A stretch of DNA of 63,087 nt, counting the filler, from Reclinomonas americana ATCC 50394 (Eukaryota): assembly GCA_048213135.1 (NCBI GenBank). It is 10 parts of 10 records of this genome, joined end to end, with 100 filler letters (N's around TTAATTAATTAA, not from the genome) between each part and the next. Parts side by side here need not be neighbours in the genome. Positions count along the whole stretch, not along the records: positions 1 to 7,801 come from AFZH01021864.1; 9 more parts are not named here. One strand, given 5' to 3'. Position 1 is the first letter of the stretch. Each line of letters starts with the position of its first letter. Below the pieces are notes generated by a model. It was given only the letters and a program-made list of their open reading frames with translations. It ran no database searches and was not told the origin of the DNA. This document shows, one piece after another, positions 1-52,370 of this stretch. Both the position numbers and the translations under genes were made by a program.

Positions 1-637
1 TTTTTCTTTTGCCACCACGTTTTTGACGGACGAGGAGCAGCACGGTGGAGATCACGCCAACGACATCATCTGCAACGCCGAGGATCTCGCCCACCTCACT
101 CGATTCAACAGCACCACCCTCTTTCCAAACTACTTTTGTGACTCTCCGCCGGCCATGGCAGTGATGTCCTTTTTCATGGTCCTGCTCTCTGTCTTTACGA
201 TCATCGTGTTGCTGTGCGCATGCAGCTGCTCTTGCGTGTGCAATGAGGTTTGTAATCACAAGCAAATTATGTGCGCTTCATATATGTGCTTCGAATTCGA
301 TTTTGCAGCGCTGCGTACGTGTCTCACGTGTCTATCCGTTGCACGCAGGAGCTCAAGGATTTCTGGGTCATCAATATCCCCCCGCCGCCGGATCCGGAGC
401 CGCCGGCGCCGGCTGCTGCAGCTGGCGCCGGCCTCGGCGCGGTCAACGCTGCGCACGCACCCCACGCACACCCTAGCGCTGATCATGACAAGTTCGAATC
501 TGTGCGAATGATCGTCGCGGTGATTTCCCTGTTCCTAATTGGGCTCGCAATGCTCGTCATGCGAGCAGTCAGCTACGCGACCAGCGATAATAGCGTTGCG
601 GACTGGCTTTTTTTCTGCCTCTGGATTTTTCAGGATA

Positions 638-1497
638 CAGTCCTCTTCAAAAGTTTCTGTACAACGGACACTTTTCTCTCAGTTCTTCGTGAAGAAAACG
701 ACTGCCACGTTTTTTTGTGCGGGAATCGGACTTTCAGGACCTGCCGAACATGCTCGCGAGCTCCGATTCCCGCGAAAATCGATGAAAAATTTGTGATTCA
801 CATTTTTCGTCGCGACATGTCGCGCGGGCGAGACTGCTTTGCCCCAGAATGTGTGCACACAATCGCGCGATTCCTCGAGTGCCACAAGTAGTCTGTGGTG
901 TCTCGCGAGTTTCCCTCCAGCCGCGAGACAGCGAACCACTCAGAAAGAGTCGATTTTTTCATCTGACGAATTGGTCTTGTTTATTTGTTCACTTCACCGG
1001 TCTTTTGGTGACGAACCGCTGCAACGCGAAGGTCAGGATCATCACCAAGCTGCACCTGGTGGTAGTGCAATGCGAACTGAGCGACTACGCGGAGGTGGCT
1101 TTCGCTGGCAACCACTGCACGTCGACGCTTCCAGCCACCGGGCCAAAATTATCTCGGAGCACGTGGAGACCGTTCAGAGGGACGTTCTCGACTGGCCGCA
1201 AAAGGGCTGCGACCCCAACCCGAATGAGAACCTCTGGGCACTCGTACGAAGTCGGGTGAATAGCCGGTGCCCGAATAATGCAGTCGCAACTGAAATGGCA
1301 ATTTCACCAGAAACGGAAAAAGTTCGGCAATTGGACTTGCTTTCGTTGGTGGACTTAATGCCATCATGGATCGCCGCCGTTTTGGCCAGCGGTGGGGCAC
1401 GGACCAACTACTAAGCCTGGAAAGAAAGGAGTCTTTCGGATACATGGTTCCGGCGAATGAACGATTTCTTGGTGTCAGAAACTTTTGAAGAGGACTG
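638..1497 (+). mobile_element. Tc1/mariner-superfamily DNA transposon, non-autonomous and internally degraded, 860 bp
   Basis: Perfect 22-bp TIRs CAGTCCTCTTCAAAAGTTTCTG (638-659) and its reverse complement (1476-1497), TA target duplication at 636-637 and 1498-1499, transposase remnant inside. Confidence 0.93.
839..1414 (+). pseudogene. Tc1-like DDE transposase remnant
   Basis: IFSSDE (first catalytic D region), DWPQKGCDPNPNENLW (cf. WPxxSPDLNPIENLW) and C-terminal MPSWIAAVLASGGARTNY (cf. MPxRxxAVIxAxGGxTKY). Too short and broken for a full transposase. Confidence 0.85.
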
Positions 1498-2849
1498 TAT
1501 TTGCACAGGGATTTTATTCATGCATGTGACGTACAAGTCGCGAGGTTATGTGGTTGGCCACAAGACTCCTCGGGTGCTCTTCGGCTTGATCATGTGGTGG
1601 ATGGCAGTGCAGGCGCTGACTCACATGTTTGCCGACTATATATTCCTATGGAAGTGGCTTCGTCCAAGTGCTTCGACAGGTGAGTGTGTGTTTGGAATAC
1701 TCGATTTCTATTGTGGCGCTGCGATCTGATATCTCCTCCGTGTCGGTACACAGACCCTGCATACGTTGGTGTTATTCGCCTCCTGCCAGCAGTGTCCGCC
1801 GTATTCTACGTAACTTGTTTCTGTGGAGCTATGGCAGCGTTGCACCCGCGCCATCGGCACGACGACGATGTCCCTAACAGACCAACAGCAGTACCGGATA
1901 GCCATAAAAACACCAAAGATCGCGACAAGGCCTGGCTGCTGGCGCTTGTGTGGTACGCGGTCCCGACTATTGTGATCCCGTTGACGGTGGGCTTCGTACA
2001 TGGCTTGGCATCTGTACTTGGCGGCCCGATTGCACGTTTTGTTGAACATGTCGTGGGGCTCGTTGTTGCTTTTCGACTGGCGAGGGTGACTGGAGCCATC
2101 AATCGTAAATCAGCAGCAGTACGCGACTGCTGCGCGTGCACGTGTTGTGGATATGTTTTGGAGGATGTCAACTACCGCGGAGAGTCAAATGGATTCTTCT
2201 TCCTCACTAGCGCGGTGACCATGTGCAGCTACTTGTTCGACATCTCATACGGATTCCTTGCAATGTCAGCCCCCAACTCTGCTCTCTACGGGGTGGCTGC
2301 GGTATTTGGATTGGTTAGCACGCCCGTGTTCTTTGTGGCGGTTCAGCGCGGAGATGCAGCGATCAACAGGTGCGTGCATACTGTGTGAGGCAGTCTGCTT
2401 CTATATTCTTTGCAGCATCTAATGATTTGTATACATCGATATCTACAGCATCTGCCGAGACAAAGGTTGGTTTCTGTGTTGGAGCATATGCACCTGCTTG
2501 CTTCACTCCATCTGGCTTGGCGTGTGGATCGACGCAATCAGCAACGACAGGACGATTGCTGAGGTCCACAATGTGCAACCGGCGCTGGGCCTGGCAATGG
2601 CTGCGCTGGTGCTGAAGTTTGTCGTCCTCGTCATCGAACAGACCTGTGTGATGACAGTTGCAGCTTTCGTTGACGGGCCACATCCTGTGGCTGCGGTGCC
2701 GGCGCCGGCGCCTCTGGCCACGGTGTGATTCTGGTTGAAGAGCAAACAGAGGCTACTGAGATCGGCGGCGATTGGTAAAGAAACACTTCATTCGCCACAT
2801 GATGCATGCATGACAACCCCGTCAGTCCCTTTGCCACTGGCAGTGACCT

Positions 2850-5800
2850 TCAAATACCCACCGCATCCGTAAAATCCGGCAACACGGTCCCGATAATGCG
2901 CTCCACAAGTCCTTGCGTTTGCCGACGAATTATCCGAATCGAACTACCCGACGCCAGTGCAACGTACTGAGTACCACACGCCATGTGACCCGCGACCATC
3001 GTGGAGATCTCCTCACGATCCAGCAGACTCGCCTGTTCGTCAAGAGGCACTCTTTGTCCACTCGCCAGAGACCACACGAGCGCAGCTCCCCTCCAGCCCA
3101 CGCTCACAACATATCGACCATCGGGAGTGGTAGACACCGCCCTCAACCACGTCATATGTCCCTCGAATCGTTGCACTTCTTCACCACTCGCCAGTGACAG
3201 TAAGCACACTGTTTTGTCAGCACTGCCACTGACAATGTGTTGACCGTCGGGAGTGAGCGCGACAGATGTCACCATGCCATTATGCACCCATATTTCGTGC
3301 ACTGCCTCGCCACACGCTAGCGACCAAACTCGCACAGTTTTATCCGTGCTCCCACTCACAACATGCTGGCCATCGGGAGTGACTGCAACAGCCCACACTC
3401 GCTTGGCGTGACCTTCAAGCCGTCGCAATTCTTCTCCGGTTGCCCTATTCCACACTCGAACTGTCTTGTCCTCACTTCCACTCACAACAAGTCGACTGTC
3501 AAATGAAACGGCAACACACAACACTCCTTGAGTGTGTCCCGCCAGTCGCCACATGTTTTGTCCACTCGGCAACGACCACACACACACCGTTGAGTCATCG
3601 CTCCCACTCACAACATATTTCGCGTCGGGCGTGATGACCACAGATTGGACTCTCGCAGTGTGTCCACGCAGTCGCTCCTCCGTGACACCATTCGCAACGT
3701 CGAACAAAAGAACCAAACCGCTAATGCTTCCACTCACGATGAATCGGCCGTCAGGGGTCAAGGAGAATGACGACGGCAACCCAGTGTGGCCCTCCGCCCT
3801 CCGCAATTCTTCTCCACTCATCGCCGACCACATTCTCACAGTACCATCAGTACTGGCACTCACAATCTGCTTGCAATCGGGGGTTAACGCAATAGAATGC
3901 ACCGCTCCATTGTGTCCCTCCATCCGTCGGACTTGATCCTCGCCCACAACAGACCACAAGCGCATCACGTTGTCACTTGCGCCACTTACAATTTGCTGAC
4001 CGTCAGGAGTGACAGCAACCGCCAATACCAGACCCGCGTGCCCTTCCAATCGTCGCATTTCCTCCCCACTCTCAAGTGACCACACTCGGATGGTCTTGTC
4101 ACCGCTACCACTCACGACATGCTTATTATCAGGAGTGATTGCGACAGAGTGGACAGTATCAGTGTGTCCCTCCAATCGTCGCACTTCTTTTCCACTCGCC
4201 AACGACCACACGCGGATTGTATTATCCGCACCCCCACTGACAACATGCAGACCATCGGGGGTGATGGCGACTGACCGAACTTGTTTGGTGTGCTCCGTCA
4301 GCTGGTGCATTACTTCTCCACTCGCCACAGACCACACTCTCACAGTGTAGTCATCACTTCCGCTAATGATATGCTGACCGTCGGGAGTGACGGCAACAGA
4401 TCGCACCGCAAAGGTGTGTCCCTCCAACCGCTGCACTTCGTCTCCACTTTCCAGCGACCACACACGAATTGTCTTGTCTCCGCTGCCACTCACAATGTGT
4501 TGATTATCGGAAGTAACGGCGACACATCGGATGTCATCCGTGTGTCCTTCAAATCGCCGCACCTCCTTGCCACTTGCCAGTGACCACATCCGCACGGTGA
4601 AATCTCTGCTTCCGCTTATAACCTGCTGACCATCGGGACTGACTGCAACAGACTGGACGAATCCAGTGTGTCCCTCCAATCGTGCCACTTCCTCCCCAGT
4701 CGCCAGTGACCACACACGCACTGTCCCGTCGTTACTTCCACTCAGAAGATGCTTTCCATCGGGAAAGACGGTGACACATGTTACAGATCTCGTGTGCCCC
4801 ACCACTGGCTTACTCGGCCATTTCACACCCGTCACTTCTGCCCCCGTGAAATCCGCCTCCCTCGCAAACGCCATGCACACATTCACTCTTCGCAGATCTG
4901 CTCCCCTCCAAACTGTCCTGTGCATCACCGCATCCCTCAAATCCGCACCCCTCACTCGCACTCCCGACAGATCTCGCCCACTGAACGACACTTGAGCCAC
5001 ACACAACACCGTCGCTGCATTCGCCGCTGCCGTCACCAACCGCTCGTCATCCACTTCCCGTGACAACTCAATCACCTCCCACAGTCTCGCTTGCAATGCA
5101 GGAGATCGTCGCACCACCTCGGCCATCTGCTCCACCAATGATGGCCGGTTATTCAGCAGCCGCACTGCCAATACATGCTGTCGCACATCTTCTATCGCCA
5201 ACCTCCTCTCCTCATCCCACGTCTCCCATGCAAACACATACTGCGCCGCACAGTGCTCCAGTAATGACCGGTGCATAAACCCCCACTCGTCCGTCCCATA
5301 CCGTCGCACGATTGGACAGCACACTCGCACATGCTGGTTTCTGTGTCCAAGAAATACGTCGAATGGGTTGTTTTGCTGTCGATGGTCAACATATGGGCTA
5401 CCAAACTCATCTACTTCCTCGTCATTATCTGACAGAGTCTCCTTCACAGACACACGCAACACATTCCTCTCATACATCAAGCGAGCCAGTCCCTCACAGA
5501 AGGAAAGACACTTTCTTTCTGTTGGAACATTTTCTGCACCAAGACTGGTTTGCCTCTCAAGCTCCCTCGCAATCCACTGTCGAATGAATCGGTCAAACAC
5601 ATCATGCCGAGTCGGTCGCTGCACGCCACTCGCCACCAACTGCGGCAACACACGAGCCACCACCGTCAGCATGAACGGATTCGTCACCAGTTCATCCAGT
5701 CCATGCACAGTCTTCAGTGCACGAATGTACTCCTCGGCAGTCGACCACCCTTCACTACCCTCATCATCACCGTCACCAGGCACTAGCACCAGTCGCTCAA

Positions 5801-7605
5801 AGTACTCCTCAATCTGCTCCTCGCTGAACGGTGCAATGTGTCGCTCCATCAGCTGCTGCATGCGCAATTGTCTATGTGCATCCACCGGTGCAAAATAGCG
5901 CCGATACTGTGTCACTCCACCCAACACCGTCAGAGCGTAATCGATCCGGCAAGTGATAATCACCTTCAAGTCTCGACACACGTCCAACTGGTTCTTGGCA
6001 AACAGATTCACACCACGGAACAGCTCGTCGTATCCGTCAAGCAGCAACAGCAGCGGCTCCTCCTTCAACCGTCGCACGTCCGACTCACTGAATTCCAACT
6101 CGGGCGACAGTCTCTCTAAAGCCTCCTCCAACAGTCGGTCGCGTGGTGCGCGCAGCGCACCAAGAGGCACGCGCACAGGCACTCGTCGACTTTCTCCCGT
6201 CTGCCATTGGCGCCACGCTCGCTCCGCCACCTTTGACATGGTGGTGGTCTTGCCGGCTCCACTATTACCAAATAGCACCAACACACGGTGAGTGATGTTG
6301 GTGTCGGCGAGGAAGGCATCCACCTCCGTCAACAGATCCGTCATCTTCTCCCTGGACGAGACGTCCCGCTCTTGTGAGCAAAGCAGTGGCACAAATATCT
6401 GCAAGTCCTTGTGCACACTTTCGTCGTTGCAGTAGTACTCGAGCTCTCGCCCACACAAAGCCTTGACGACTGTGATTCGCAAGAGAGTCAGTCGTAACTA
6501 GAACATCTCGAATATCAACAATTCTCTGTGTGGAAATTCGTGGAGTTGCTAACCTGGATACAAACTAAGTCGAAACTCGTTGAGTTCCTTGTCCACAAGA
6601 TTGTGTCGATGCAAGGCATCTTGGACTTGTCCCTCTTGTTGTGTATCTAGAAGATAGAGCCTGACGTGTTCATGCCAGGCCGGCAGCGATAAATGTCCGT
6701 GCTCGTTGATTGCGCCCTCGAGGGCCCGCACATACGGAGAAACATCAGCATCTGGTTATCACGAAAGGAGATCACGTGAGAAATCAGCACATTGCTGGCG
6801 CTGTATGAAGTCGCGACTCACCACCCTCGAATGCTTCCAAGCCGTGACAACACGCAAAGCCAGCAAAAACATTGTTCGCCAGACTACTCTCGTCTATGGG
6901 ACTGACACTCTGCGGGCGAGACCTACACTCAGACACACACAGAATGAGAAATGCAGAATCAAAGCGACTTGTCTCAAGTCAAGCAAGCGCACTCGGCAAT
7001 CTTCCGGCAGCAATTCATCAAAAAGATCACTACCGTGCGCCTCGATGCCTTCCGCCGGAGTTCCGGCATGCAGTATCCGACGAGCTTCAGCGATTTTACA
7101 CCACTCAGCTGCGCAAGTTTTGTCAATCGCAAGTCCGCTCGCAAACAAAGATATCAGAGACGTCAGACAACTCACCAGCTCTTTCATGGAGACACTGTCG
7201 CTGTTGACATCGCATGGGAGGAGCAGCAGGTCTCCGCCACTCGTCAATCCGTGACCAGAGAAGAACAGCAGAACGCACTCGCACGTCCCGTTAATCTCGC
7301 CTCGCACAAATTCGTCAAACACAGAACACATTTTCCTTCCCTTCACATCTTCGCGTCGACAGACGTGGAATCCACATGCCTCAAGTACAGGCGCTAGCAA
7401 AGCTACACGAGCGAATTCGAAGAGAACAAAAGAAAGGAGCAAGATAGAGTGAAAGTGAGCGGATTGTCGTCATGCATGATTGCGGCGACGAGCGCTCAAT
7501 ACATACATACACGCACCCACATCACGCGGCGGATTATTCAACTGCCCAAACACCTCCCCTGCATCGCAAGAGTTGCCGATGAGCAGCGCCACACGCTTGT
7601 ATTTC
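2850..7605 (-). CDS. Caspase/paracaspase-like (peptidase C14) - NACHT - pentapeptide repeat - 14x WD40 protein (NLR-like), 5'-partial
   Basis: Exons 7605-7517, 7402-7176, 7108-6993, 6922-6822, 6751-6554, 6469-2850 join in frame via GT-AG introns. Motifs: KRVALLIGNS..LNNPPRDV..GFHV, LLFFSGHG (His), VVIFLMNCCR (Cys), p10-like FAGFACCHGLEAFEG..SPYVRAL; Walker A GNSGAGKT, Walker B LLLLLDGYDE, IITCR, NPFML; pentapeptide GRDLSGVRVRGADLRDA; 14 GH..WS repeats. Confidence 0.88.
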
Positions 7606-7648
7606 CTGCAGCAGTGAGAGTGATACTTGATCATGAGATCGGGCAACT

Positions 7649-7650
<2 letters not shown>

Positions 7651-7679
<29 letters not shown>

Positions 7680-7689
7680 CATACACACA

Positions 7690-7749
<60 letters not shown>

Positions 7750-7770
7750 ACCGCGCACACACACACACAC
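7651..7770. repeat. (CT)n/(CA)n microsatellite at contig end
   Basis: Directly visible dinucleotide run just before the first spacer. Confidence 0.95.
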
Positions 7771-7801
7771 TACAACAAACAAAACGAAGAAGAAACGAAC
7801 G

Positions 7802-7901
7802 NNNNNNNNNNNNNNNNNNNNNNNNNNNNNNNNNNNNNNNNNNNNTTAATTAATTAANNNNNNNNNNNNNNNNNNNNNNNNNNNNNNNNNNNNNNNNNNN
7901 N
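7802..7901. other. Artificial 100-bp contig spacer (N44-TTAATTAATTAA-N44); others at 10008-10107, 14814-14913, 21356-21455, 44908-45007, 52271-52370, 56275-56374, 58522-58621, 60970-61069
   Basis: The same structure occurs nine times; TTAATTAATTAA puts stops in all six frames. Confidence 0.98.
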
Positions 7902-7923
7902 CATTGCACGCTCCCACTTCACC

Positions 7924-9084
7924 GTGCGAGCTGCGGTCAACTCTGCTGCTGTGTCCTCCTTGCCACCTTCAGTGTGCGACTGTACCCTGGATGAGTATCT
8001 GTGCACGGTTGCTGCAATCATCAACTCACAATTCATGCTCATGGCACCGCCGCCGGATGGTGGTGGCGGAGTCGAGGAGAAAAATTGGCTGGCCTCACCA
8101 CCACCTGCAGCTGATGACACGCTGCCACTGCCGCCAGGTCGTATTATCGCCTGCAACGGCATCGTCTTGACGAGGGCACGTGCTTATCTTGTGGGAGTCG
8201 AGAATGATGTGTGCAAGAGTGGTGACGGCGTCACGGCACCGACACTCCCGCCTTTTACTCGGAATGAGGATGACAGACAGGTTATGCGCCTTCGGCATTG
8301 CTATGACCAATTGTTTAGGATGTGGACATCGTATCGTATGCAGTTGGGGTCAGCGTCTCACATGCAGCCTCGTTCCGCATCGGAGACCACTGCTGCAGCA
8401 CCAGCACATGCATCATCGACTGATGTCGTTTACGTTGGCGCTGGAAGAACAGTGGCAGCTGGTGGTGGTGCACCACGACGCGATGCACATGATGTGATCC
8501 GCGAGTCGTTTGGGAGACTTCTGGATGAGTGCTCCGTGTTCATCGGCGAGAAGACGTCAACTCGTCTGGACGGCACTGGCACCGACACTCAACTGCAATC
8601 AGCTGCAGGCGGGTCCACTGCAGACTGCGGTTCCACCGCCACTGTGCGCACGCAGTTGCGCTCTCGTGCTGCTAAGCTCACCGACACTGATCAACGACTT
8701 GCGCTGCGAGTACTTGTGCCAGAGGCTGGTTGGCTCACATGCTCATCAGTGTTGGTTGGCTCTGCACTGAAACTTGCGGCACTCTTCTCGGCGGCGAGTC
8801 ATGAGATGTCGACACTGTTTACTGCCAAGGAAGAGTCCAGTGCACTGCTGGATGCACTGCTGACGTCGTCAGGCGTCAGCTCCGACATTGATCATCGCCA
8901 CCGTGTCTTCAACTGCGGCGGTGCAGAATGCACCAGGTGCATGTTGATGAGGACGAAGATTGGCGCGTTCACGGCCGAAAAAACGGCGTTGAAGGCGTTA
9001 TCAGATCACGTCAGAATCCTTGATGCCATAGCATGTTGCGTCGTGTATCACTATGTGGAAAAGAGAAGGGCAGACTGTGAATAG
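7924..9084 (+). CDS. Hypothetical protein (~386 aa open frame, possibly 5'-partial)
   Basis: Long uninterrupted ORF from the contig start with natural protein-like composition; no family recognised. Confidence 0.5.
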   Translation: MRAAVNSAAVSSLPPSVCDCTLDEYLCTVAAIINSQFMLMAPPPDGGGGVEEKNWLASPPPAADDTLPLPPGRIIACNGIVLTRARAYLVGVENDVCKSGDGVTAPTLPPFTRNEDDRQVMRLRHCYDQLFRMWTSYRMQLGSASHMQPRSASETTAAAPAHASSTDVVYVGAGRTVAAGGGAPRRDAHDVIRESFGRLLDECSVFIGEKTSTRLDGTGTDTQLQSAAGGSTADCGSTATVRTQLRSRAAKLTDTDQRLALRVLVPEAGWLTCSSVLVGSALKLAALFSAASHEMSTLFTAKEESSALLDALLTSSGVSSDIDHRHRVFNCGGAECTRCMLMRTKIGAFTAEKTALKALSDHVRILDAIACCVVYHYVEKRRADCE

Positions 9085-9904: not shown

Positions 9905-10540
9905 TGCTGTGTGGGTTATGTGCTCCTTGCTTGGCTAGCATCTCTCTCTTCTCTCTCCCTCTCTCTTGATCGCCCTTCGCACCGCCTCTGTTGGCTGACT
10001 CATTCTTNNNNNNNNNNNNNNNNNNNNNNNNNNNNNNNNNNNNNNNNNNNNTTAATTAATTAANNNNNNNNNNNNNNNNNNNNNNNNNNNNNNNNNNNNN
10101 NNNNNNNGCGAGTGACCGCGACATGTCCGCTTTTATTGTTTGTTCACTGTGTGTGCTCTCACACACACGCACGTGCATTGGCGTTCATGCTCAATGTGCC
10201 GTGATTTTGCGGCTATTTTTGAGCTCTCGCACGCCTGCTCATGTGCTGCTCTTTCGTGCGTGGGACTGTGTCGCAGTCGCTCTTGTCTCTCGCCTTCTCA
10301 TTGTTCCTTGTGTCAGTGAGCTTTCTTTCGTGGAGTTATTTGACACGCACACGCCATGTGTGTGTGCGTTGAGCGTGTATATATGTGTGCGAATCAGTGT
10401 GACACGGAATCTGTGATGCTCACTCTCGAGTAGTCTTTGGCCGCAAAACGCAGTCTCTCTCCTCCTCCGCTCTCTTCTCCTCTCCCTCCCTCCCTCTCCC
10501 TCATATGCGCCTCACCACCTGCGCGCACACGCACACACAG

Positions 10541-12918
<2,378 letters not shown>

Positions 12919-13430: not shown

Positions 13431-14766
13431 TTACTGGAACTTAACAGTGGCCTTGAGACGCAGCTCAGCCAAACCAACCAAATCATGCTCGCACATGGAC
13501 AGGTCCACGGAGCGCAACAGAGGGCACGCCAACAAGCCGGAGACATCATGCAAATTGGGGCATCCCTGCAGCATCAGCATTGTCAGCAAGTGGCCAGCAA
13601 CAAATGATTGCACGCGAGCAGACGACCGCACCTTCAAAACGACTTTTCTCAGCGTCTTGCACTTGCCAAATGGTTGGCAGTTCTCGATGAACGAGTTGGA
13701 CGACACCACGACACCCTCCAACACCGGACAGCGACCGACCGGCTCGAACGATTCGATCTTGCCGCAGTCGCTCAGGTTCAGTCTGCCACACGCATACATG
13801 ATGAGTGAGATGTTCTCCTATCCTTCTGTCATCATGCTACACACCTTGTTAGCTTTGGCAGAGCCACCACAGCGGCAATGCTCACCAAATTGGAGCACTT
13901 GGAGACATTGATGCTCTCGAGCCGCACGCATCCACTCAAAAAGTCGAGATCGACAATACTCTCAATGCTCGACATGTTGATGCTGACCAATCGTGGCAAT
14001 TCGCGGAGCACCACAAAACTCTCGATTTGTCTGCACCCTCCAATGTTCAACTGCAAAAATGGGCGGGAGGCACACATGTGAGTGAGTTCAGTCACGTAGT
14101 CAGTCGGACTCCCCCCACTCGTCTCCCGTACCCGCTTGATGGCCGTGCACTGGCCGAGAGGCTCAATGGACCTGATCTGAGTGCAGCCGGACAAGTTGAC
14201 TTTCTGCAGTGGGCACGCGGCCAATGCAGAAATGTCGTGCAAGTAGCGGCACATTTTAAGGTTGAGGCGGAACAGATGCTTGCAGTTGCGCACAAAGTCA
14301 ATGCTGTCAATGTTGCGCGTGCGCTTGAGATTTAGTCGCTGCAGATTGGTGCACTCGGCCAGACTGCGCACGGTCGGCAGATGGGGGCAATTGGCTGCAC
14401 AGAGGACAGACACACACATGCTGTTAGTTCACAAGCGACCTCCCGTCCCGTCCCTCTCTCCTTCTCGACGACTCACCCAGAATCAAATGTCGCAACAGGG
14501 TGCACTTCTCCAACGGCGCCACCGACGTCAGTTGCACGCACGAGCGCAGGTCCAATCCGCGCAAGTTGACGCACGCCGCCAGCGGCGAGATATCCGGCAC
14601 ATTCACACACCAGCTCATGTTTAGCGATTTGAGGTTGGTGCAGCTCGCCAGTGGCGACACGTCGGTGATGTGCGGGCACTCGCTCAGCACGAGATACTTG
14701 AGGTTGACGCAGCCGGCCAGTCCCTGAATGTTGTCCAGCATCGCACACCCTCGCATATCGATTTCC
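13431..14766 (-). CDS. Leucine-rich repeat protein (Cys-containing LxxLxLxxC repeats), spliced, 5'-partial
   Basis: Repeats such as LAGCVNLKYLVLSECPHITDVSPL and LAACVNLRGLDLRSCVQL. A possible first exon MGSSSSKAQRSAKK (ATG 15576, minus strand) lies across the gap. Confidence 0.85.
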
Positions 14767-15775
14767 TGCGCGGTGGGATGAGCGTACAGCAGAGAGAGAG
14801 AGAGAGAGAGAGANNNNNNNNNNNNNNNNNNNNNNNNNNNNNNNNNNNNNNNNNNNNTTAATTAATTAANNNNNNNNNNNNNNNNNNNNNNNNNNNNNNN
14901 NNNNNNNNNNNNNACGGCTATGAAAGAAACAAAGACCCAGACATGATTGGCAGTGATGCAACTGAAATTCACCCACCACCCTCGTCTGTGCCCAACAAGC
15001 AAAGACACGAAGAGGAAGACACAGGCAGACACGAGGATGCCAGAGAAACACGACAATCCCTCGCGAAATGCGTCCGAGACCACATCATCAGAGAGACAGG
15101 ACGCACGCGCAATGGAACACAATCTCTCCTTCTCACGACACGAACACCCCTCTCGACAGGCTCACATACGCAGACACACAGAAAGAGAAAGAGAGAGAGA
15201 GAGAGGGAGAGAAAGGGTTTTCTGTATGTTGGTGCCCACGAATGTCACTTGAGACAAAAATCCATCCCAACAACTCACACACGCTCACGCTGCTGGCGTC
15301 ATGTACAACAGCATGAACGTGGCGCTTCACCGCACAAACCACCCATGTACAAGAGCGAGAGATATATCGCACACACAATACCCTCTACCGCCGACAATCA
15401 TTGCTTTGTGTGTGTGTGTGTGTTGTGTGCGTGTGTGAACGGCTTGGTGACCATCTCGCGCCCCGCGCCTGTCTCTTCGCACCACCCTTCACTTTTTCTC
15501 TCCCTCTCCCACACGCAACTCGCTTGGCCAGAATCTTCTTTGCCGAGCGCTGAGCCTTTGACGAGGACGATCCCATTGCCTCACCAACAAAATCGCAAAT
15601 CGATAAACTGGGAATTTGTCGCAAATTGAAAGAGACAGCATAGTTCGAGTTTTCCTGAATTTGTGTTTTTAATGCACCACCACAAGCACGCACGAAGAGA
15701 GACGGAGGAGATTATCACGACGATCAAGGCACAACAGTGCGCCGGTCGACCGAGAAAACGCACCAACCATCAGGC

Positions 15776-17528
15776 TTATGCAGTCTTGCCCTTCTTCTTC
15801 TTCTGCAGCTTGCGCTCGTAGAACTCGAGCTCAGCTCCCTCGAGGATGTAGCCGTCGGCACGACCGCACTGGCCGGGGCGCGAGGAGATGGCAGCGTACA
15901 AGCGGCCGCTGACAAACTGCTCCTGCACCTTCGGGTCGATCACGCGGTTCGCCTGGCGATCAGCCACTCTGTGCACACACAATCGCCGAGCGAGTAAGTC
16001 ACACCGCACTCGCATGCGCACTTTCCCCACTCTCACAGTCGTCATGAGACGAGACACACAAAAAATCAGAAACTTAGTACGATAGTGACTTCATCGGGTG
16101 CAAGCACCCTGCACTGTTAAAAAAGTTCTCATCACGCATTGCAGAAGGGCACAACACACCGACACCCACGGACATGCACTTCCCATCTCTTCCTCCTTCA
16201 CCACCACCACCACCACCATCCCCACTAACCGCTTCTTGGCCTCAGCCGAGTTCTTGACAGTCCAGTCGGTCTCACCCTCCTTCTTCTTGCCGAGCACAAT
16301 TCCGTAGTGCTTCTCGTACCACTGGCGGAATGGTGTGGCGTCGATCTGCACAATGCAGCCCTTCACCAGGGTCTTGGTGCGGACGAGCTCATTGTCTGTG
16401 GCGTTGTACTTCACAGCGAGGATCCTGCTCTTGGAGGTGGTGCCTGCAACAACAACATGAGCATTTCCCTTGACGAGAGATTGCAACAACAGCAACGACG
16501 CACTCTCAGACGGCCAGGCAAAGTTGCCGACTTCGAGGCGCAGCGCGCGGTACTTGGTCGAACCGCCACGAGTGCGGACCTGCCAGGCGACAGATAACAA
16601 TAACATCGTGAGCTACGTCTGCCTGCCACCCAGAGCTGTAGATATCAAACAAACAAACAAACAAACAAACCGTGTGGATGCGCTTGTGGCCAATCTTGGT
16701 CATGGCAGCCGGGCGGCCCAGCTCGTACTTGCGCTTCTTCTGGTGAATCTGGAGAGCGGAACCACAGCACAGCAGTCAGTCAGTCATGCGCCATATCGAC
16801 ACCACCACCATCACCACCACTGCACCAACCTTGCGCTTTCCGCCGGTCAGTCGGCGCTTGTAGCGGGAGGCACGGCTGATGCCTGCATGAAGAAGAAGAA
16901 AAAAGAAAGGACGTGAGTGTCACCACCACCAAGCAGACATGACACGCACACCATCCACTCTGCCCTCCTCATCACAACGGGAACACGTCTTCTGCAGCTG
17001 CCTCTCTTGCTGTCCTCTCACTGCATGACGGCGTGCGAGTGTGTGGCGCAGTGTGCGAGTGGGGGAAAAGGGAGTGGGCATGTCACTCGCTCATCGTCGC
17101 CTCCACTCCCACGAGACGCGACTCACAAACAGCTGCTCGGTGCTCCTTCTCTCTTTCTCCCTCTCTCACTCACACACACCCACACACAAACACAGCAGTG
17201 CTCTCTTTCCACACCACAGAGAACACAAAATCCCTGCCAAAGTCACACATGGAAAGGAGAAAGGCCACTCGTTCTCCTGCCACACACATCCTGCATTGGG
17301 CGCACAGCACCAACGGATGCCGTCGCGCAAAAGCGGGGCACAGCAAGGGGGAGGCGGCGACAAACAAAGGCACATGCACATTCGTGACATGACCATGGAC
17401 ACCACGCACACGCACGCGCACATACACTCTCTCTCCCCCGTCCACCCCTCTACCCCACTGGGCTGCGATGACAGACACGGCGATGCGGCCGCAGGGACCA
17501 TTCTCTGCGGCGATTTCGACTTACCCAT
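15776..17528 (-). CDS. RPS8: 40S ribosomal protein S8 (eS8)
   Basis: ATG G|gtaagt at 17528; exons give [77 protein letters not shown]. Confidence 0.97.
16066..16135 (-). ncRNA. Intronic box C/D snoRNA in the last RPS8 intron
   Basis: C box GUGAUGA (16135-16129), D box CUGA (16069-16066), C'-like CGAUGA. The guide UCGUACUAAGUU is antisense to LSU rRNA AACUUAGUACGA at the sarcin-ricin helix; the element lies in an unusually long 261-nt intron. Confidence 0.8.
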
Positions 17529-17611
17529 TCTCTTGTGTGCAGTGGTGGGATGGATGTATGGGACAATCGTGCGTCATGCGTGGTGGACAAACAGCGATCA
17601 AAACAACGGCA

Positions 17612-18359
17612 ATGGCTGCACGCGCAGCGCCACCCGCCGGTCGTCAGGACCCCGCCAAACTGCTGGCCAGGTTACCCAAGCGCGAGTTTGTGCGCGTCAA
17701 AGTGCTCTCTGTGGGCGATGGGGCCGTGGGCAAGAGCTGTCTGATCAAGCGCTACTGTGAGGAAAGAGTTGCGGCACACACACTCACACGCTCGCGTCAC
17801 TCTCCTCGCGCTCCTCGCTCACCTCCACAATGTGATCAGTTTGTGGCCAAGTACGTGCCGACCATTGGCGTCGACTATGGCGTGAAGGCGTTGGATGTGG
17901 TCGGACAGGAGGTTCGCGTGAACTTTTGGGATCTGAGCGGCCGCCCCGAGTACTTTGAGGTGCGCAACGAGTTCTACAAGGACACACAAGCAGTTGCGTT
18001 ATCATGTGCGATCGCGCTGTATTGGGCGAGGAGCGTGGACGTTGAACGTCGTCGACGCACAGGTGATCTTTGTGTACGAGATCGGCAAGAGAGCCACGTT
18101 TGAGGCCCTGGACGGGTGGCTGGAGGAGGCGACCAAGTACGGTCTGGCCGACACAGCGGTGGTGGCCGTGGTGGCCAACAAGACCGATCTGCACAAGGGC
18201 GGAGGCTCGAAGCCACGCGCTGTCTCCGAGGACGAGGGTCGCACGTGGGCCACGCAGCACGGCTTCTCGTACTACGAGACGTCGGCGAATAGTGGCGAGG
18301 GAGTGACGGAGCTGTTTGAGGGACTGCTCGGCGTGCTCATGCGTGGACGTAACTCATGA
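17612..18359 (+). CDS. RJL: RJL-family small GTPase (DNAJC27/RBJ-type G domain, no J domain)
   Basis: GDGAVGKSCLIKRYCEERFVAKYVPTIGVDYG, NFWDLSG (no catalytic Gln), EVRNEFYKDTQ, NKTD, ETSA; two introns; no prenylation motif. Confidence 0.9.
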
Positions 18360-21355: not shown

Positions 21356-21519
21356 NNNNNNNNNNNNNNNNNNNNNNNNNNNNNNNNNNNNNNNNNNNNT
21401 TAATTAATTAANNNNNNNNNNNNNNNNNNNNNNNNNNNNNNNNNNNNNNNNNNNNACCGATGAGTGAGAGAGAGAGACACACGAGCGCATGCAGCGGAGA
21501 AACAGAACACACTACAAAC

Positions 21520-31900: not shown

Positions 31901-34900
31901 CCACCACCAATGATGACACGATCATTGCCGGCGTCGTTGACGCTCATCAATCCACATGTTTCCTGCAAAACCGCCAATTCATCGGGTGTGCCCTGCCAAT
32001 AGACAGCACCACCACCGCCGTACTGAGGCGGCGCACCCTGATTGTTTACATGAGTTGAGCACAACTGACGAGACGTACGAAGAGAGAGATGTTCGCGGGA
32101 AGAAAACGCACCATGCTGAATGCCAAGCTGTCGGCAATCTCCATCACGCATCCTTGACTCCAGTACACACCACACCCCGAGTTGACGGCAGACATCCAGA
32201 TGCCTCCACCCAGCGCAGCCGCACACGAGCTCAGCGTAACTCGGCCACTCATGGAGACGAGCCCCGTGGATGTCGTATACAGCGCACCGCCACTCTGCGC
32301 AGCGGTCGCATTGTAGATGCTGACGTCAATCAAGTCGAGAGTGACGGCATCTTGCATGTAGATGCACCCTGCTCGCACGCATTGCGAGTGAGCAAGGCAA
32401 CGCGCTGGCACCGCGGAGGAGAAAAGCCACAAATACCTGCGTCGACGCCGGCAGTGGCACCAGAGAACGCCGTGCGGGTCACCGTTGCTTGCGCAGAGAT
32501 GCTCATATCGATGCAGCCGCCGTTCTGTCCCGCTTGCACATCTGCGCACCACGACTGTCAGAGAGTGCACATCCAAACAGAAGGCCGATGCAGTGATCAC
32601 GCACTTGAGATGGTACTGTCCGACACAGTCGCCACACCAGCGCCAGTGAGGCTCGCCAGTCCGCCACCACTAGCCGCCTCAGCACTCTGCACCACCATAT
32701 GGCGCATGACGCCCGTGGCCAGGTCCATCACTCGCAGCACGCCACCCGAATCGCTGGCAACGCTGCTGTAGACGGTACTATATTCCATCACCATGGTGCC
32801 GAGAAGCTCCGAACTCGCCGCTGCAGCAGCACATGGACGTCGGCTAACATGAAGCGGAAGTGCTCACGAACAGCTGTGCACCACGCAACTGCCACCCCAC
32901 GCTGCCTGATTGCCGAGGAATTCGCTGTGCGACAAGGTGCACACAGCGAGATCCTCCACGGCGACGGCGCCACCAGACCACAGGCACTGGTTGTACCAGA
33001 AGTTGCACTTGCTGAATGTCACAGCGGCCGATCTGCACAACGAGAAAGGAGTCAACGGTGAGAAAACACAGCCAGCAATCATATCGTGAATGCACACACG
33101 CAGACAGACCCGGAGACGAATGCAGCACCGCCGCTCGAGCCGTGAGCTGTGTGTGATACAGCGGTGAGTCGTCACAGCGGGAAAGAGTACGCGGACAACA
33201 ACACTTGCCGTCATTTGAGGTGAAAAAGCTGGAAACGATGGTGCCGCCGCCGGCATGAATCAGAGACAGAGCGCCACCGAAATCGGCATGATTGCTGGTG
33301 AATGAGCAGCCGTCAATATACGTGTCGTATACCAACAGGTCGACAGCGCCTCCCGAAACCACCGCCCAGTTCTGCGTGAATGTGCTTCCCTGCATCGAGA
33401 GAGGAGACAGAAGAAACTAACTTTGAGCACAGTCGACATGCACAGGAGACTGCGTGTGCAACAGAGGAGCACGGCACGCACCGTAATCGACAACGTATTG
33501 CCAGTAGCACTCTGCGTGTACGATGAAATACAAGGTCAGCCTTATGCGGCAGCAAAATAATGAGATAGAAGAGTGGCAACGCACCACAGCGCCGCCCTGC
33601 TGCAATACCCTGTTACCGGAGAACTGCGAATCGCTAATGGTGCAATCAACCAGCGAGTACAAACAGCCGCCACGTGACACCGACGTATTATTGTAGCATT
33701 GACTGTCGGAGAATACGAGGTTCCTGCGGCAGAAAGTGTCAATCGAGGCAATGATACCACTGTGCGACTGCGCAACAGCAACAAACCCCTCAGCAACCAC
33801 AGCACCACCACTGGTGGCCGAGATGTTGTTAATGAACTCCGTGTCGGTGATGTGAGTATCGGTCGATACCGAAGCAAACACACCGCCACCGTACTGCCCA
33901 ACATTCAACTGGAACACGCTTCCACGGATGAAGAGACGCATGAGCTTTGCCAGCACTCCTCCGCCCAATGCTGCGTCTCCAGAGTCAGTTGTGCACCTTT
34001 CACTGATGTGGAAGGACGAGAGATATCATGGACGCAACTGGCGGCAAAGGTCGGCGGCGAGGTGTTGTACACGTAGTTGCTGAAGAAAGAGCAACCCTCG
34101 ATAATCGCTGTCGAGGCGTTTGTCGCAGTGTACGAGGTTGCGGTCTGCCGACAAAGTGTGTCAGATGCAGAAACATGCAGACACTTTTACCGCAGCTGAT
34201 GGAAAACTTACCGCGGTGAGTGCCAGTGCTCCACCTCCAAACGCAATGTCTTCGACACCTTCGGGGACGACAGGTACCGCGGGAGTACTCAGCGAATTGC
34301 GACTGAATAGACACGTGTCGATGGTGATTGAGGCGATGGGGAGGTCGGCTGTCGGCAACACGCCAACAATTGCACCGCCACCAGCGACACTGACACCAAG
34401 CGGCACGTAGCCACTGCCAATGGTGACAAAGTTGGTCACGAAGAGAGAGAGTCGCACATCGAGCTGCAACGCAGCGTCCGTAAGCGACCGCGATACCACT
34501 GTGCGGCACAGCATCGAGTTAGCGCCATAAAAACACACAGCCGAAACCCAGCGCACACCAACCATACAGGGCACCACCACCGGCCACCGAGTTCGGAGTG
34601 CTCTCCGTCATGTTGCCGCTGACACCGTTGGCACGAAGCACAGAGTCCGACATGATAAGCGAGTTGGAGACGGCACCCGACTGGACGTCTTCGGTGAGCG
34701 CAAACTGCAACGAGTTGCACGTGAATGTTAGGTAATCAATCAATCATACGAGGCAACAATCGACAGCAGCGAGGGATGCGCACCAATCCACCACCACCGA
34801 AAAATGCAGTGAGCGGGCAGCTCAGGGGCCCGTTGACCACATTGCTGATGAAATCGGTGCTGCGTACATCCTGCACACACACGAAAGCATCACTCGCGGT

Positions 34901-40900: not shown

Positions 40901-42683
40901 ACAGAACACGCTGCACCAATGGCATTGATAAGTGAGTTCATCAATGTCGCCTGCACACTGTTGTTGGAGACCACCGTGTCCTCCATCGTCAGCTGCACAA
41001 GCACCGGCTCCGTGCCTTTGACGGGATCCGAATACAACGCCTCTTCGACCACCAGTTGCAGCGCAGCTGCATCGACCGCGGATTGCGAATGAGAGCGTGC
41101 ACAGGAGTGAAGGAAGGACTACGTGGGAGCACACACCACCGCCGATGCCAGCAAGCTTCTCCGTCGCGATGTTGGTGTTGAACCAGAAGGAGTTGCGCAG
41201 GAGCTGGCAGTTGGTCACCGACGCCGTGACATTGGAGGCACTGTAGCGGGACACGAGCCAGACGGTGAGCGCGCCACCAACATACAAGTCAGCTGCCACC
41301 GCCGGCATCTGGTTCACGTTGACCACATTGTCGGTCACATTGACCGAATTCAGTTGTATCGACCACAAAAACGATGCAGCGGTCGGTACTGCGGCTAGCC
41401 GTGCACGACAATAAGTGTGAGTGAGCGTGAGGACAAAGCAAGTAGACTCCACAAACCGGCGGTAGTGAAATTGCTGCAGAGGATGAACATGGCGGCACCT
41501 CCGTAGATGGTGGCATCCGGCAGGACCGTCGCACTCGGCTGGAAGCCCGGCGAGCCCACCACGACAACGTTGCCTTGAAACACCGAGTTGGAGACGGAGA
41601 CTTGTTGCACGTGACCGGCTGCAGTGACGGCCAAGCCGGCTCCGCCAATCGTGGTCACGTTGGCAGCGAGAGGCGACGACGACAGCACATGCACAGTGTT
41701 GTTGACAAAGTGCGCGCCATCCACCGTCAGCACTTGCACCGTGTCGATCCACACACCGGCGCCGGCAATGACTGAGCCGACCAACTGCGACGAACTCGCC
41801 ACAGATGCCGGCTGCGACACGGTGTTGCGAGCAAACAGCGAGGAGCGCACATCGACCAGCGCTGCACCGCCACTGACAGCCACACCTGCGCCACGCACAG
41901 CCGTATTGTCGGCAAAGGTGCAGCTGTCCACGTGCAGTTCGGCGGCACTGCCTGTGAACTGCACGGCGACGGCGCCTGCTGCGGCTCCCTGGACCTGCAC
42001 ACGCTCCATACTGCACGACTGCGAGGCTTGCACCTGTATGGCAGGGACGGTCGCACTCGCCGCCGCCGTCAGCGACAACCCGGAGAGCACAACATTTGCC
42101 GCCCCCGACACCGACAGCGCCGATGCCGCACTTCCGCCCAAACTCAGCTCGGCTACACCTATGGAACAAGACAAGGTGACGTTGGCCACACTGGCAAAAC
42201 TCAGCGGCGCCGTCAGTGCAGGATACACGCCCGGCGACAGCACCAGCTACAAGTGCGCGAGTGTCAACACATAGAAAAAAACGAACACACAGTGGACACA
42301 CGCACCTCCACTGCCGACAGGGGACTCGTTGGTGTCGGCGAGCACAGCGTGGCAGCGCGGGTCAGTGAGCACGGATCAACTGCTGTGCACATGGCGGTCG
42401 AAGCCGACGACCCCGACGCAGATGCATAGGCCACACATGCTGGCGCCAGCATCGCCTCTCCACTCCGTATCCTCGTCCTGCTCCGCCTCCTCCCCTCCTC
42501 CTCCTCCAGCCGCGCAAGGTCACGCTGCGGCGGCGGCGCAGCAGACCGCCTCTCTGCCGCGGCCTCATTCATCATCATCGTCATCATCAGCATCATCAAT
42601 ACCATCATCGACACCAGCACCAGCAGCAACAGCGGTAATCTTCGCTGCCGCCGGCCGCCAGCAGCCGCAGCCGCCGCAGGCAT
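28971..42683 (-). CDS. Giant cell-surface protein: signal peptide, Pmp/pectin-lyase-like beta-helix repeats, Cys-rich region, C-terminal multi-pass TM domain; dozens of introns
   Basis: N-terminal hydrophobic segment; many GGA(I/L/V) and FxxN motifs; CGVGTGY..CTSC..CSVCPDHFVCLGG and LCGVCNEGY; TM exons (FSTFVFFDC, WFYEPIQLFRR, VRPYSRRRDNVLE); stop at 28971. Confidence 0.82.
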
Positions 42684-42983: not shown

Positions 42984-45900
42984 ATGCCGGTGGATGTGGA
43001 GGCGGTGGTGGCAACATCAGCAGCGGCACCGGTGTCGCTGTTGGCGCGCCGGGCGGTGACCACCAACAGCCATTCACTGTCGCCGAGGTGAGTGTGTGAC
43101 TGTGTGTGCGTGTGCGTCTGTGTGCGACTGTGCATTGATGAGTGCTGTGTGCGCAGTGCATCTTCGCGGTCTCGGTTGAGCACGCTGCGCAGCGTCACTC
43201 GTGATGTGATGATGGTGGACGAAGGCGATGATGATGATGAGCAGGTCGATATCGATTGTCGACCTCTCTCGTCTCCTCTGTGCCTTCCGTCCTCTGTCGT
43301 GTCGCGTGTGCCGCTGAGTGAGGCTGAGGTGGTGGACTTGCTGCAAGAGTCCGCTGCCCTGTCATCGCCACCGCCGCGACCACCAGCACCTCCAGTGCAG
43401 TCCATGTTTGTGGACGGCGTCGGCAACGACGGCTCTGTTGACGAGTCCGACCTGCTGCTCTGTCTGAGCGACTTGGCGACCGAGCATGTGAACATGTCGC
43501 CGCCGGTGGACGATGACCTTGGCACTCCTCCTCCGCCCCTTCCTCCTCCACCGCCACCGCCACCGCCGCCGCCACCAGCTGCGGTGTTGCCGCGTCAGTT
43601 GGGCGACTACTTGGGAGTGGATGCGCCGGAGATTGTGGAAAAGTACGCCGCCATGGGCATTGTGGAGTTGCATCCGTGGCAGCGCGAGGCGCTGAGCTCG
43701 CCCGGTGTGCTCGATCGCCATCGCAGCCTGGTGTACACGGCGCCAACCAGCGGTGGCAAGACTCTCGGTTGCGTGCTCGCCTGGCGCTGCGATCGGTGAC
43801 CACTCGCTCACGTACTCACACTGCACAGTGGCCGAGATCCTTCTCATCCGCCGCCTTCTGCTCACGGGGCACAAGGCGCTCGTCATCTTGCCGTTTGTCA
43901 GCATTGTGCGCGAAAAAGCAAAACAGCTGTCTCGAGTTACGTGGAACTCCTCTCGCTCCCTATGTTCACTCACTCACTCACTCATCCGCCGACAGATCCT
44001 GAAGCCCGACGGCTTCACTGTCTCGGCGCATTACAACGTGGTTGGCGGCTCACTCGGCGAGGATGAGCACGTGGCGGTGGCCACCATTGAAAAGGCTGCC
44101 GGCATGGTGAATCGCCTCATTGAGGAGGGTCGCGTGCGCGAGCTCGGAACGGTGGTGGTGGACGAGGCGCACATGATGGGCGATCCGTCACGCGGCTTTC
44201 AGATTGAGTGCACGCTGACCAAGCTCCGCCACGCCGTCGGCGCCCAGCTGCAGGTGGTGGCCATGAGTGCCACGCTACCCAACATGCCCGACATTGCGCA
44301 CTGGCTCGACGCCGTGCTGTATCAGACATCGTTTCGACCCACGCAACTTGACGAGTGCTTTGCCATGGAGGGACGAGGCGAAACCGACGATAAGCAGGAG
44401 TATTTGGTGTTGCACGATCGAGTTCCGTGTGGTTGTTTGTTGTTTTTTAATTTACTTGTTGACCAGCTCTGACTGGGTGGCAACACACACAGAGTGGCCA
44501 ACCGAGTCAGTACGTGAACCCAAGCGACGGACAACTGTGCACTCGCCGGTTGCCGATGTTGCCTGTCAGCCAAACCACAACTGTGTTCAGCAACAACATC
44601 CACCAGTTCCTCTTCCGTGCAGTTGCGCACCGGCCTACATCTCCCCTTTTCCTCCCCCTGCTGGCTTTTCTGCTTACCACGCAGCGCAGGGTTTCAACAC
44701 GATTCACGACAGTGTGCTTCGGGGCGAGGGCGTGCTGGTGTTTTGTGCGACCAAGAACAATTGCATCGAGTTTGCGCGCGGTTTTGCGCAGAGGGCCAAT
44801 GGAGTTGGTGCGTGGTGACGCGACATGAACACTGTGTGCCACGATGTTGACCCCCTCCCCTGTGTGTGTGTTGTTGAGTAGCTCGCGTCAAGGAGGGTGC
44901 TAAAGAANNNNNNNNNNNNNNNNNNNNNNNNNNNNNNNNNNNNNNNNNNNNTTAATTAATTAANNNNNNNNNNNNNNNNNNNNNNNNNNNNNNNNNNNNN
45001 NNNNNNNTGTGTGTGTGTTGTTGAGTAGCTCGCGTCAAGGAGGGTGCTAAAGAAACTCCACCCGATCTCCGAGGTGTGTATTTTTTTTCGTTGGGGAGGA
45101 TGCCCGTGGTGCTTCCTCGCTTATTTCGTTTACACACAGATGCCGCGGCGAGGTATCTACGGCCGGATCCCGCATGCCTGGCTCGCATCGAGAAGCTACA
45201 GCGCAAGCTGCGACTGGCCTCGGCAGGTGGTCCCGACTCGATGTTTCTGTTGGAGTGCATCGGTCGTCGGGCGGCCTGGCACCACGCCGGCCTCACCCTG
45301 GAGGAGCGTGCACTGGTGGAGCGCGCCTTTCTCAAGGGCACTATCCTGGTCATTTTTGCCACCACTACGCTGTCGGCCGGCGTCAACCTGCCTGGTGTGT
45401 GTGTGTACCACTGTGTGTTTCGTGAAGGAAATCTCCTACTGACGGCGGGACGCAGCGCGCAAGGTCGTGTTTCTCGGCATGAATAGCGGCATCCAACCGC
45501 TGTCTCGCGTGGTGTACCAGCAAGCTCGAGGGCGCGCCGGTCGCGGTCCGCTCTCTGGCGAGTCCATCCTCATTGTGCCGCGCCAGCAGCACCGAAACAA
45601 GCAGGACGCCATTATCGAGCTGATGACTGCAGGCCTCGACCCGCTCGCCAGTGCACTGGCGAATGCCGCCACCGGTACTGCTGCCGCCGCCGCCGCGGCG
45701 GCTGCTGCTGCCTCCAGTAGCAGACGAGAGCAGTCAACTGAAGCCGCGCCTCGGTTGCTGCTGGATGTCGTTGGCTGTGAACTGGTGCGCACCGTGGAGG
45801 CCGCATGCGAGCTGTTTGCCACCACCTTTCTGGCGTATGAGAGGTTCATAGTGCGCCAGGCGGCACGCGAAAATATGCTTGTTATAACGCTGCGCGTCGC

Positions 45901-52270: not shown

Positions 52271-52370
52271 NNNNNNNNNNNNNNNNNNNNNNNNNNNNNN
52301 NNNNNNNNNNNNNNTTAATTAATTAANNNNNNNNNNNNNNNNNNNNNNNNNNNNNNNNNNNNNNNNNNNN

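Follow-up and report, generated by a model that had tools for sequence, protein, structure and literature searches.

The 63,087-nucleotide stretch of the Reclinomonas americana ATCC 50394 genome analysed here (assembly GCA_048213135.1; hereafter the window) consists of ten parts joined by filler. The first part, the contig at positions 1-7801 (AFZH01021864.1), carries on its minus strand, between positions 7634 and 2850, what is most likely one real gene. It would be a member, found in a eukaryote, of a kind of single-chain protease and NOD-like receptor (NLR) already known from bacteria. The product, of about 1456-1459 residues, probably comprises an N-terminal C14 protease domain whose His-Cys dyad is intact, a NACHT domain in which both Walker motifs (A and B) are preserved, a short beta-helix of pentapeptide repeats and a pair of WD40 propellers. 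Taken as a whole, with the proposed mechanism included, the reading of the locus as a spliced nuclear jakobid gene for a single-chain protease-NLR is reasonably probable. Demonstrable here are the exon structure with its reading frames, the domains, both sets of motifs (catalytic and ATPase) and, in the NACHT module, a predicted fold of NLR type. The observation reported in an earlier sequence-only reading of the window is confirmed with two corrections, and its interpretation as a receptor is partly supported.

The core of the gene is a long open reading frame (ORF) that runs from stop to stop over positions 2850-6497 of the minus strand (1215 codons) and encodes, as had been claimed, a NACHT-WD40 protein with a bare N-terminus. 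Five small upstream exons had been proposed to join it in frame, and a script rebuild of the six exons (7634-2850, minus strand throughout) gives a single frame of 1456 residues that ends at the TGA at 2852-2850 and contains no frameshift or internal stop over its 4371 nt. Exon 1 (7517-7634) begins with the ATG at 7634-7632, 36 nt downstream of an in-frame stop, and contributes the caspase domain's first strand, with the motif KRVALLIGNS..LNNP. The catalytic histidine lies within FFSGHG in exon 2 (7176-7393, with an alternative start at 7402; codon 7253-7251), and the catalytic cysteine, Cys146, within IFLMNCCRK in exon 3 (6993-7108; codon 7009-7007). The p10-like half begins in exon 4 (6822-6922) and its remainder (SPYVRAL..) is encoded by exon 5 (6554-6751), and all the motifs quoted in the sequence-only reading, including IFLMNCCR, are found in these exons. 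Exon 6 (2850-6469) encodes a linker, the NACHT module, the pentapeptide repeats, 14 WD40 repeats and the terminal TGA, and is separated from the caspase exons by intron 5 (6470-6553, 84 nt), the proposed caspase-to-NACHT junction and the least certain part of the model.

The introns measure 123, 67, 70, 70 and 84 nt, all five have GT..AG ends, and their phases agree. Since introns 2-4 are not multiples of three and introns 1 and 5 contain in-frame stops, read-through could not yield the same protein. All frame-keeping GT-AG alternatives near introns 1-4 were scored against a bacterial caspase profile, described below. The proposed sites score highest of 11 alternatives for intron 3 and of four for intron 4, and rank second of nine for intron 2, where the better-scoring rival uses the poor donor GTCTCC. 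For intron 1, among 15 alternatives, an acceptor 9 nt further upstream, which would start exon 2 at 7402, raises the score from 72.9 to 81.5 bits, adds three residues, closes an alignment gap and extends the product to 1459 residues; the upstream exons stand as proposed in their splice ends, phases and common frame, but the acceptor of exon 2 fits better at 7402. The G+C content is 0.51-0.54 in the exons versus 0.42-0.50 in the introns.

The identity of the N-terminal domain is clearest in exon 2. Library scans were run exon by exon rather than on the joined product, and the 72 residues of exon 2 alone match Pfam PF00656, Peptidase_C14 (E 1.3e-7; 32 bits, cut-off 21.4; residues 32-101 of the 233-position profile), and not PF12770. 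The same exon has a weak NCBIfam match to the bacterial model caspase_w_EACC1 (E 0.004), and its closest PDB sequence is a similarly weak match to the MALT1 paracaspase (E 0.12). In the ESM Atlas, 29 of its 30 matches are Peptidase_C14 clusters. A tblastn search of plasmids with exon 2 returned 153 records with a best E of just 3e-3, and among the matches listed 34 of 40 fall on genes annotated 'caspase family protein', at 29-38% identity. Exon 2 found no match in a word-indexed search of longer proteins, and a pattern scan of genome contigs matched 349 stretches, none of which was confirmed. The remaining exons of the domain are less distinctive: exons 1, 3, 4 and 5 have no match in Pfam or NCBIfam, exons 1, 3 and 5 none among PDB sequences, and none of the five small exons is matched in PADLOC.

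The spliced domain was compared with a profile built from the first 340 residues of seven full-length bacterial caspase genes, taken from eight plasmid loci that were fetched, each of the seven being a full-length PF00656 match (E 2e-32 to 2e-45). Residues 13-226 of the spliced product align to profile positions 26-232 in a single colinear piece to which each of the five exons contributes in its proper order (the caspase part by itself scores 72.9 bits), and the profile's catalytic positions, GH and C-R, are occupied by His87 of FFSGHG and Cys146 of MNCCRK. Exon 2 alone scores 42.3 bits, and with exon 2 masked the rest still gives 14.2 bits as two matches in the right order (exon 1; exons 4-5); omission of exon 3 or exon 4 lowers the score to 68.1 or 62.8 bits, respectively, scrambling of the exon order to 56.0 bits in broken pieces, and of five residue shuffles two score -2.4 and -3.3 bits and three fall below the report threshold. 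Exon 1 alone reaches 9.2 bits at profile positions 25-49, a score that ranks second among the window's 1190 six-frame ORFs (E 0.039).

The claim of a complete caspase fold holds to different degrees along the domain. It is well supported for exons 1-2, whereas for exons 3-5 it follows from their position, order, motifs and added score. Alone, exons 3, 4 and 5 score -1.4, -2.7 and 1.9 bits, respectively, the last aligning to profile positions 196-232, and none of them is individually significant; the putative p10-like half in exons 4-5 (profile 176-232) adds about 10 bits. Two further points count against the fold as modelled: the share of the score that comes from exon 2 involves a circularity, since likeness to exon 2 was the basis on which the profile members were selected, and codon usage, which supports the proposed frame in four of the five small exons, fails to do so in exon 3. 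In type, the caspase domain looks bacterial, or orthocaspase-like, judging by these matches.

The part encoded by exon 6 is an NLR-type core. The pre-NACHT element and the NACHT module, i.e. the nucleotide-binding oligomerisation domain (NOD), occupy positions 4998-6400, with the Pfam NACHT match at 5793-6287 (PF05729, E 1.2e-10; 41.9 bits, cut-off 26.7; in the first 560 residues of exon 6). Both nucleotide-binding motifs are intact, the Walker A as GNSGAGKT (lysine codon 6251-6249) and the Walker B as LLLLDGYDE (first aspartate codon 6038-6036). An AlphaFold2 model of the same 560 residues was obtained with a mean predicted local distance difference test (pLDDT) score of 84.8 and a predicted template modelling score of 0.83, and the best Foldseek matches to it are NLRC4, NOD2 and NLRP3 (E 1e-13 to 1e-10, probability 1.00, template modelling score normalised to the query about 0.5); the predicted fold of the NOD module is NLR-like. 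A Pfam scan of this N-terminal part at E <= 1 gave NACHT and generic P-loop families, and neither NB-ARC nor CARD.

A pentapeptide-repeat beta-helix at 4824-4991 (PF00805, E 4.6e-6; 26.5 bits, cut-off 20.2) lies between the NACHT module and the WD40 repeats; in the model this region has single-residue strands regularly spaced every five residues, and it is preceded by the motif AAANA, which recurs in 105 of 166 relatives. The WD40 repeats at 3003-4811 (PF00400, E 7e-141) form 14 stretches, enough for two seven-bladed propellers, and the 12 cleanly delimited units are 42 residues long each, with a mean pairwise identity of 48%. Hyper-similar WD40 repeats at the DNA level were considered and rejected, as Tandem Repeats Finder gave a single 126-nt array of 1.9 copies with 74% identity.

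Relatives of this core are numerous. The nearest named sequence is an R. americana expressed sequence tag (EST) peptide (EukProt, P0017) of 178 residues, 84% identical to the NACHT part over 147 residues, the existence of which indicates that a close relative of the gene is transcribed. An exhaustive profile search with the NACHT part returned 4226 representatives with E <= 0.001, of which 343 reach E <= 1e-30, and the best of these after the EST peptide share 28-37% identity over the pre-NACHT/NACHT/pentapeptide module (query 5-558). Nine of the top 20 representatives looked up are named, being the EST peptide and sequences from eight Mortierellomycotina fungi, and the other 11 are metagenome or organism-less records. 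At the N-terminus, 11 of 14 relatives scanned with Pfam carry ARM_5 and one carries Metallophos, and the precomputed Pfam lists of two EukProt relatives include TIR and SAM. A caspase was found in none of the 167 nearest NACHT relatives, whether looked for with phmmer, through a dyad motif or with the caspase profile (best E 0.68). The N-terminal position therefore looks like a swappable effector slot that, among the relatives seen, holds a caspase only in this lineage.

In prokaryotic genomes, a scan with a motif pattern of the NACHT-pentapeptide module returned 100 loci, and 76 of 101 loci checked are true homologues by tblastn. They lie mostly in metagenome-assembled genomes (MAGs) labelled Mycoavidus, where the module is multi-copy, and also in Tatlockia, Coxiellaceae, other Gammaproteobacteria, Chlamydiae and Myxococcales, the host bacteria being for the most part ones that live inside eukaryotic cells. 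No caspase match lay within the 2-kb flanks of the bacterial NACHT loci, and a PF00656 search of 10 genomes with pattern loci found none adjoining them. An Escherichia coli record used as a control contained no pattern loci, and a 301-genome sample of one phylum yielded nothing, which is uninformative since its centre locus was a chance motif match. A tblastn search of plasmids with the NACHT part gave no match, and a metagenome scan matched 178 stretches with none confirmed. The Mycoavidus loci agree with the description by Ciach et al. (2024, PMC11291939), according to which NACHT-pentapeptide-WD40 receptors are common to Mortierellomycota and their endosymbiont Mycoavidus. In those NLRs a homologous pre-NACHT/NACHT/pentapeptide module of about 540 residues, 27-37% identical over its length and with the AAANA motif, is followed by WD40 repeats, as in the Reclinomonas gene, whereas the relatives of this type have ARM_5, Metallophos or TIR/SAM at the N-terminus and never a caspase (0 of 167). 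The Reclinomonas gene is a further instance of the patchy distribution of the NACHT-pentapeptide-WD40 module among eukaryotes and their intracellular bacteria, which probably came about by gene transfer.

The question on which the architecture turns is whether the caspase exons are joined to the NACHT exon. That the long ORF needs an upstream exon follows from the family-conserved and confidently folded residues that precede its first methionine. No ATG occurs in the first 51 codons after its upstream stop, and in 57 of 164 relatives the alignments reach ORF residue 35 or earlier, i.e. at least 17 residues upstream of that methionine, with a conserved element of the relatives aligning to IFVPLL of the ORF. 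The 20 residues preceding the methionine are modelled as a helix and a strand with pLDDT values of 91 and 85, respectively, in the AlphaFold2 model described above. The 84-nt gap between exons 5 and 6 offers no usable start, its sole ATG being directly followed by a stop. Judging from these features, the caspase exons are likely fused to the NACHT exon in one gene.

The alternative is a pair of adjacent genes, a caspase-like protease of about 250 residues ending at the TAG at 6551-6549 and a bare NACHT-pentapeptide-WD40 protein starting at the ATG at 6344-6342, which would act in trans as what is left of an operon-like bacterial pair. The junction 6554/6469 singled out in the sequence-only reading keeps frame and phase, but it is just one of 24 frame-compatible GT-AG pairs between exons 5 and 6, and phase agreement therefore says little about intron 5. 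Its donor, GTTAGC, is unlike those of the other four introns (GTGAGT twice, GTGCGT and GTGCGC), and the in-frame TAG within it, directly after exon 5, means that an unspliced message would stop there and encode the caspase alone. By our arithmetic, 51 open codons before an ATG arise in about 9% of cases by chance alone, and with a caspase in 0 of 167 relatives no relative confirms the fusion. Two genes nevertheless leave the conserved, confidently folded residues upstream of the ATG at 6344-6342 unaccounted for; they would also be separated by only about 200 nt from stop to ATG, with the frame open for 51 codons before the latter, and bacteria are known to have these domains fused in the same order, as described in PMC3501461. 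The two-gene arrangement is accordingly rated as quite unlikely.

The locus might also be dead or artefactual, either a pseudogene in decay or a chimera produced in assembling a highly fragmented draft, given that the contigs are small and that the one carrying the gene breaks off in a (TG)n tract, 167 nt upstream of the ATG. The EST peptide shows frame errors as well: its first 22 residues, near the P-loop, resemble a frame-shifted version of the pre-P-loop stretch and its last residues are also out of frame, which points to either EST read errors or a damaged paralogue. Such an origin appears very unlikely in view of six exons totalling 4371 nt without a frameshift or stop, of the intact catalytic and ATPase motifs and of the transcription of a relative. 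Bacterial contamination was rejected, as the caspase part is interrupted by five insertions with GT..AG ends, all skipped cleanly in the profile alignment, and a Reclinomonas EST relative exists. The end of the contig coincides with a (TG)n/(GA)n microsatellite (7650-7780, minus strand) that extends from just upstream of the start codon and probably explains the assembly break there.

Elsewhere in the window the parts are joined by nine identical linkers of 100 nt, each with 44 N, a 12-base spacer carrying stops in six frames and 44 N (7802-7901, 10008-10107, 14814-14913, 21356-21455, 44908-45007, 52271-52370, 56275-56374, 58522-58621 and 60970-61069). A POLQ-like gene, with DEAD (43696-44469), Helicase_C (45025-45483), POLQ helical (45443-46354) and DNA_pol_A (49413-51150) domains, spans the linker at 44908-45007, and the order of the contigs there looks real for that reason. 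The other ORFs belong to ordinary eukaryotic families, including ribosomal protein S8e, UCH, RRM, Ras/Roc, phosducin and kinase, among others, and no second copy of NACHT or caspase was found anywhere in the window. An ORF of 380 codons on the last contig (61471-62613, plus strand) contains at least six WD40 repeats and may be the tail of another receptor. Protein kinase, leucine-rich repeat and Ras/Roc fragments on neighbouring contigs (10417-10926, plus; 13835-14428, minus; 17393-18100, plus) may come from signalling genes of the ROCO kind, and they are probably separate genes since their strands differ. Several long ORFs between 30000 and 43000 on the minus strand have weak matches to beta-helix or Chlam_PMP repeats (33420-34025, 41398-42246), which suggest a large repeat-rich surface or adhesin-like gene. 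On the gene's own contig, the ORF at 797-1414 (plus strand) may resemble the C-terminal part of Tc1/mariner-type transposases in one stretch, a likeness unconfirmed by Pfam, which gave no match at E <= 1e-4. An ESM Atlas search with the ORF at 7903-9084, which lies next to the gene's contig, gave no usable match.

In STAND and NLR proteins the ATPase is held shut by the repeat sensor for as long as no ligand is bound; once one binds, oligomerisation gathers the N-terminal effectors, and proximity is a known route of activation for proteases of the caspase clan. By analogy, the WD40 part of the Reclinomonas protein would keep the NACHT module closed pending a ligand, the binding of which would lead to nucleotide exchange and NACHT oligomerisation; the oligomer would gather the N-terminal caspase domains and switch them on by proximity, and the active protease would then cleave a substrate, most likely as part of an immune or cell-death response. 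The case for this chain of events, from oligomerisation through proximity activation to an immune or death role, is evenly balanced. The gene would most likely descend from a bacterial caspase-NACHT-pentapeptide-WD40 gene that gained its introns later.

The same fused protein might instead serve as a regulatory scaffold or processing protease in normal biology, such as the life cycle, the stress response or protein turnover. Nothing in the window links the gene to infection, and no substrate, gasdermin or other death-effector or executioner family was detected among the 126 window ORFs scanned, from which split genes would escape. Prokaryotic orthocaspases that carry extra domains likewise lack a settled role, according to two reviews (PMC5756287, PMC3501461). 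Against this, every well-studied protease-STAND or protease-NLR design covered by the available text of two reports works in defence or cell death (10.1101/2021.06.03.446900, 10.1101/2021.06.07.447441), and two features of the family would be expected of receptors, i.e. an N-terminal slot that varies among relatives (ARM_5, Metallophos, TIR, SAM) and WD40 units that are unusually alike at 48% mean identity. A role confined to normal biology is on the whole regarded as unlikely.

The favoured reading, a single-chain protease-NLR, can be extended to a one-chain sensor and caspase switch of death or immunity that works in a free-living, deep-branching protist and would be the first such protist system, a prospect that appears doubtful at present. 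In such a version the WD40 propellers would recognise a viral or bacterial product, and the protein's own protease would kill or arrest the cell, possibly by cleaving a pore-former whose gene lies outside the window. Should the fusion prove real and active, NLR-like regulated proteolytic signalling would extend to Discoba, far from animals, plants and fungi, and the gene would offer a simple, adaptor-free system for a STAND ATPase switching on a caspase-type protease.

The closest counterpart in design is bacterial. Metacaspase-NACHT-Pentapeptide-WD40 is described as a cyanobacterial variant of the widespread bacterial Metacaspase-NACHT-WD40 architecture (Asplund-Samuelsson et al. 2012, PMC3501461), and by that description, on which alone the comparison is based, it has four domains in common with the Reclinomonas protein in the same order, with the C14 protease N-terminal. 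The Reclinomonas copy differs in being eukaryotic and in having five spliceosomal-type introns in its caspase part. The search for the same architecture thus has a divided outcome, as it is already described in cyanobacteria but absent from the 167 nearest NACHT relatives, and the novelty attributed to the design in the sequence-only reading was overstated, given the identical cyanobacterial domain order (PMC3501461) and the fungal CHAT and S8 protease-NLRs (10.1101/2021.06.03.446900) on record. A full-text literature search, covering listings and selected passages, yielded no protist for which a C14-NACHT fusion is reported. As the design is already known, the gain lies in distribution and evolution and not in a new principle. 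Among non-metazoan caspase homologues without p10, extra domains are confined to the prokaryotic ones, the orthocaspases, in the available part of PMC5756287, a picture with which the Reclinomonas gene would conflict, though a p10-like half is apparent in it.

Proteases of the same one-chain build are also associated with gasdermins. According to 10.1101/2021.06.03.446900, some fungal gasdermin-linked proteases are NLRs, among them an S8/NACHT/WD40 example, and one NLR-like protein with a CHAT domain is depicted there as a model; bacterial gasdermin-associated C14 or CHAT proteases are sometimes fused to NACHT or to repeats (10.1101/2021.06.07.447441). The fungal HET-Q2-like and the bacterial proteins unite a sensor of NOD and repeats with a protease effector of the caspase clan or of the subtilisin type in one chain, as is probably the case here too, and both reports propose that such protease-NLRs cleave a death executioner directly, without an adaptor. 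They differ from the Reclinomonas protein in two respects: the fungal caspase-like domains described there are of the CHAT type, while the Reclinomonas domain matches PF00656, and the fungal and bacterial genes adjoin gasdermin genes, whereas none was found in the Reclinomonas window, where the gene's contig is 7.8 kb long.

The Apaf-1 apoptosome and the inflammasome NLRs of animals share with the Reclinomonas protein an ATPase of the STAND class and a sensor made of repeats at the C-terminus, and in them a caspase is activated by induced proximity. Apaf-1 carries two WD40 propellers. In the Reclinomonas protein the caspase stands in cis and needs neither a CARD nor a PYD as adaptor, NACHT takes the place of NB-ARC as the NTPase, and the protease is of the bacterial orthocaspase kind. 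Membership of the Apaf-1/CED-4 family is ruled out by the NACHT domain, the absence of CARD and an N-terminus formed by the caspase domain itself, and the apoptosome-like character claimed in the sequence-only reading does not amount to kinship. In the extended reading of a working one-chain switch, the gene could represent a surviving intermediate on the way from the caspase-STAND fusions of bacteria to the apoptosome and inflammasome of animals, in which the parts are split and linked by adaptors.

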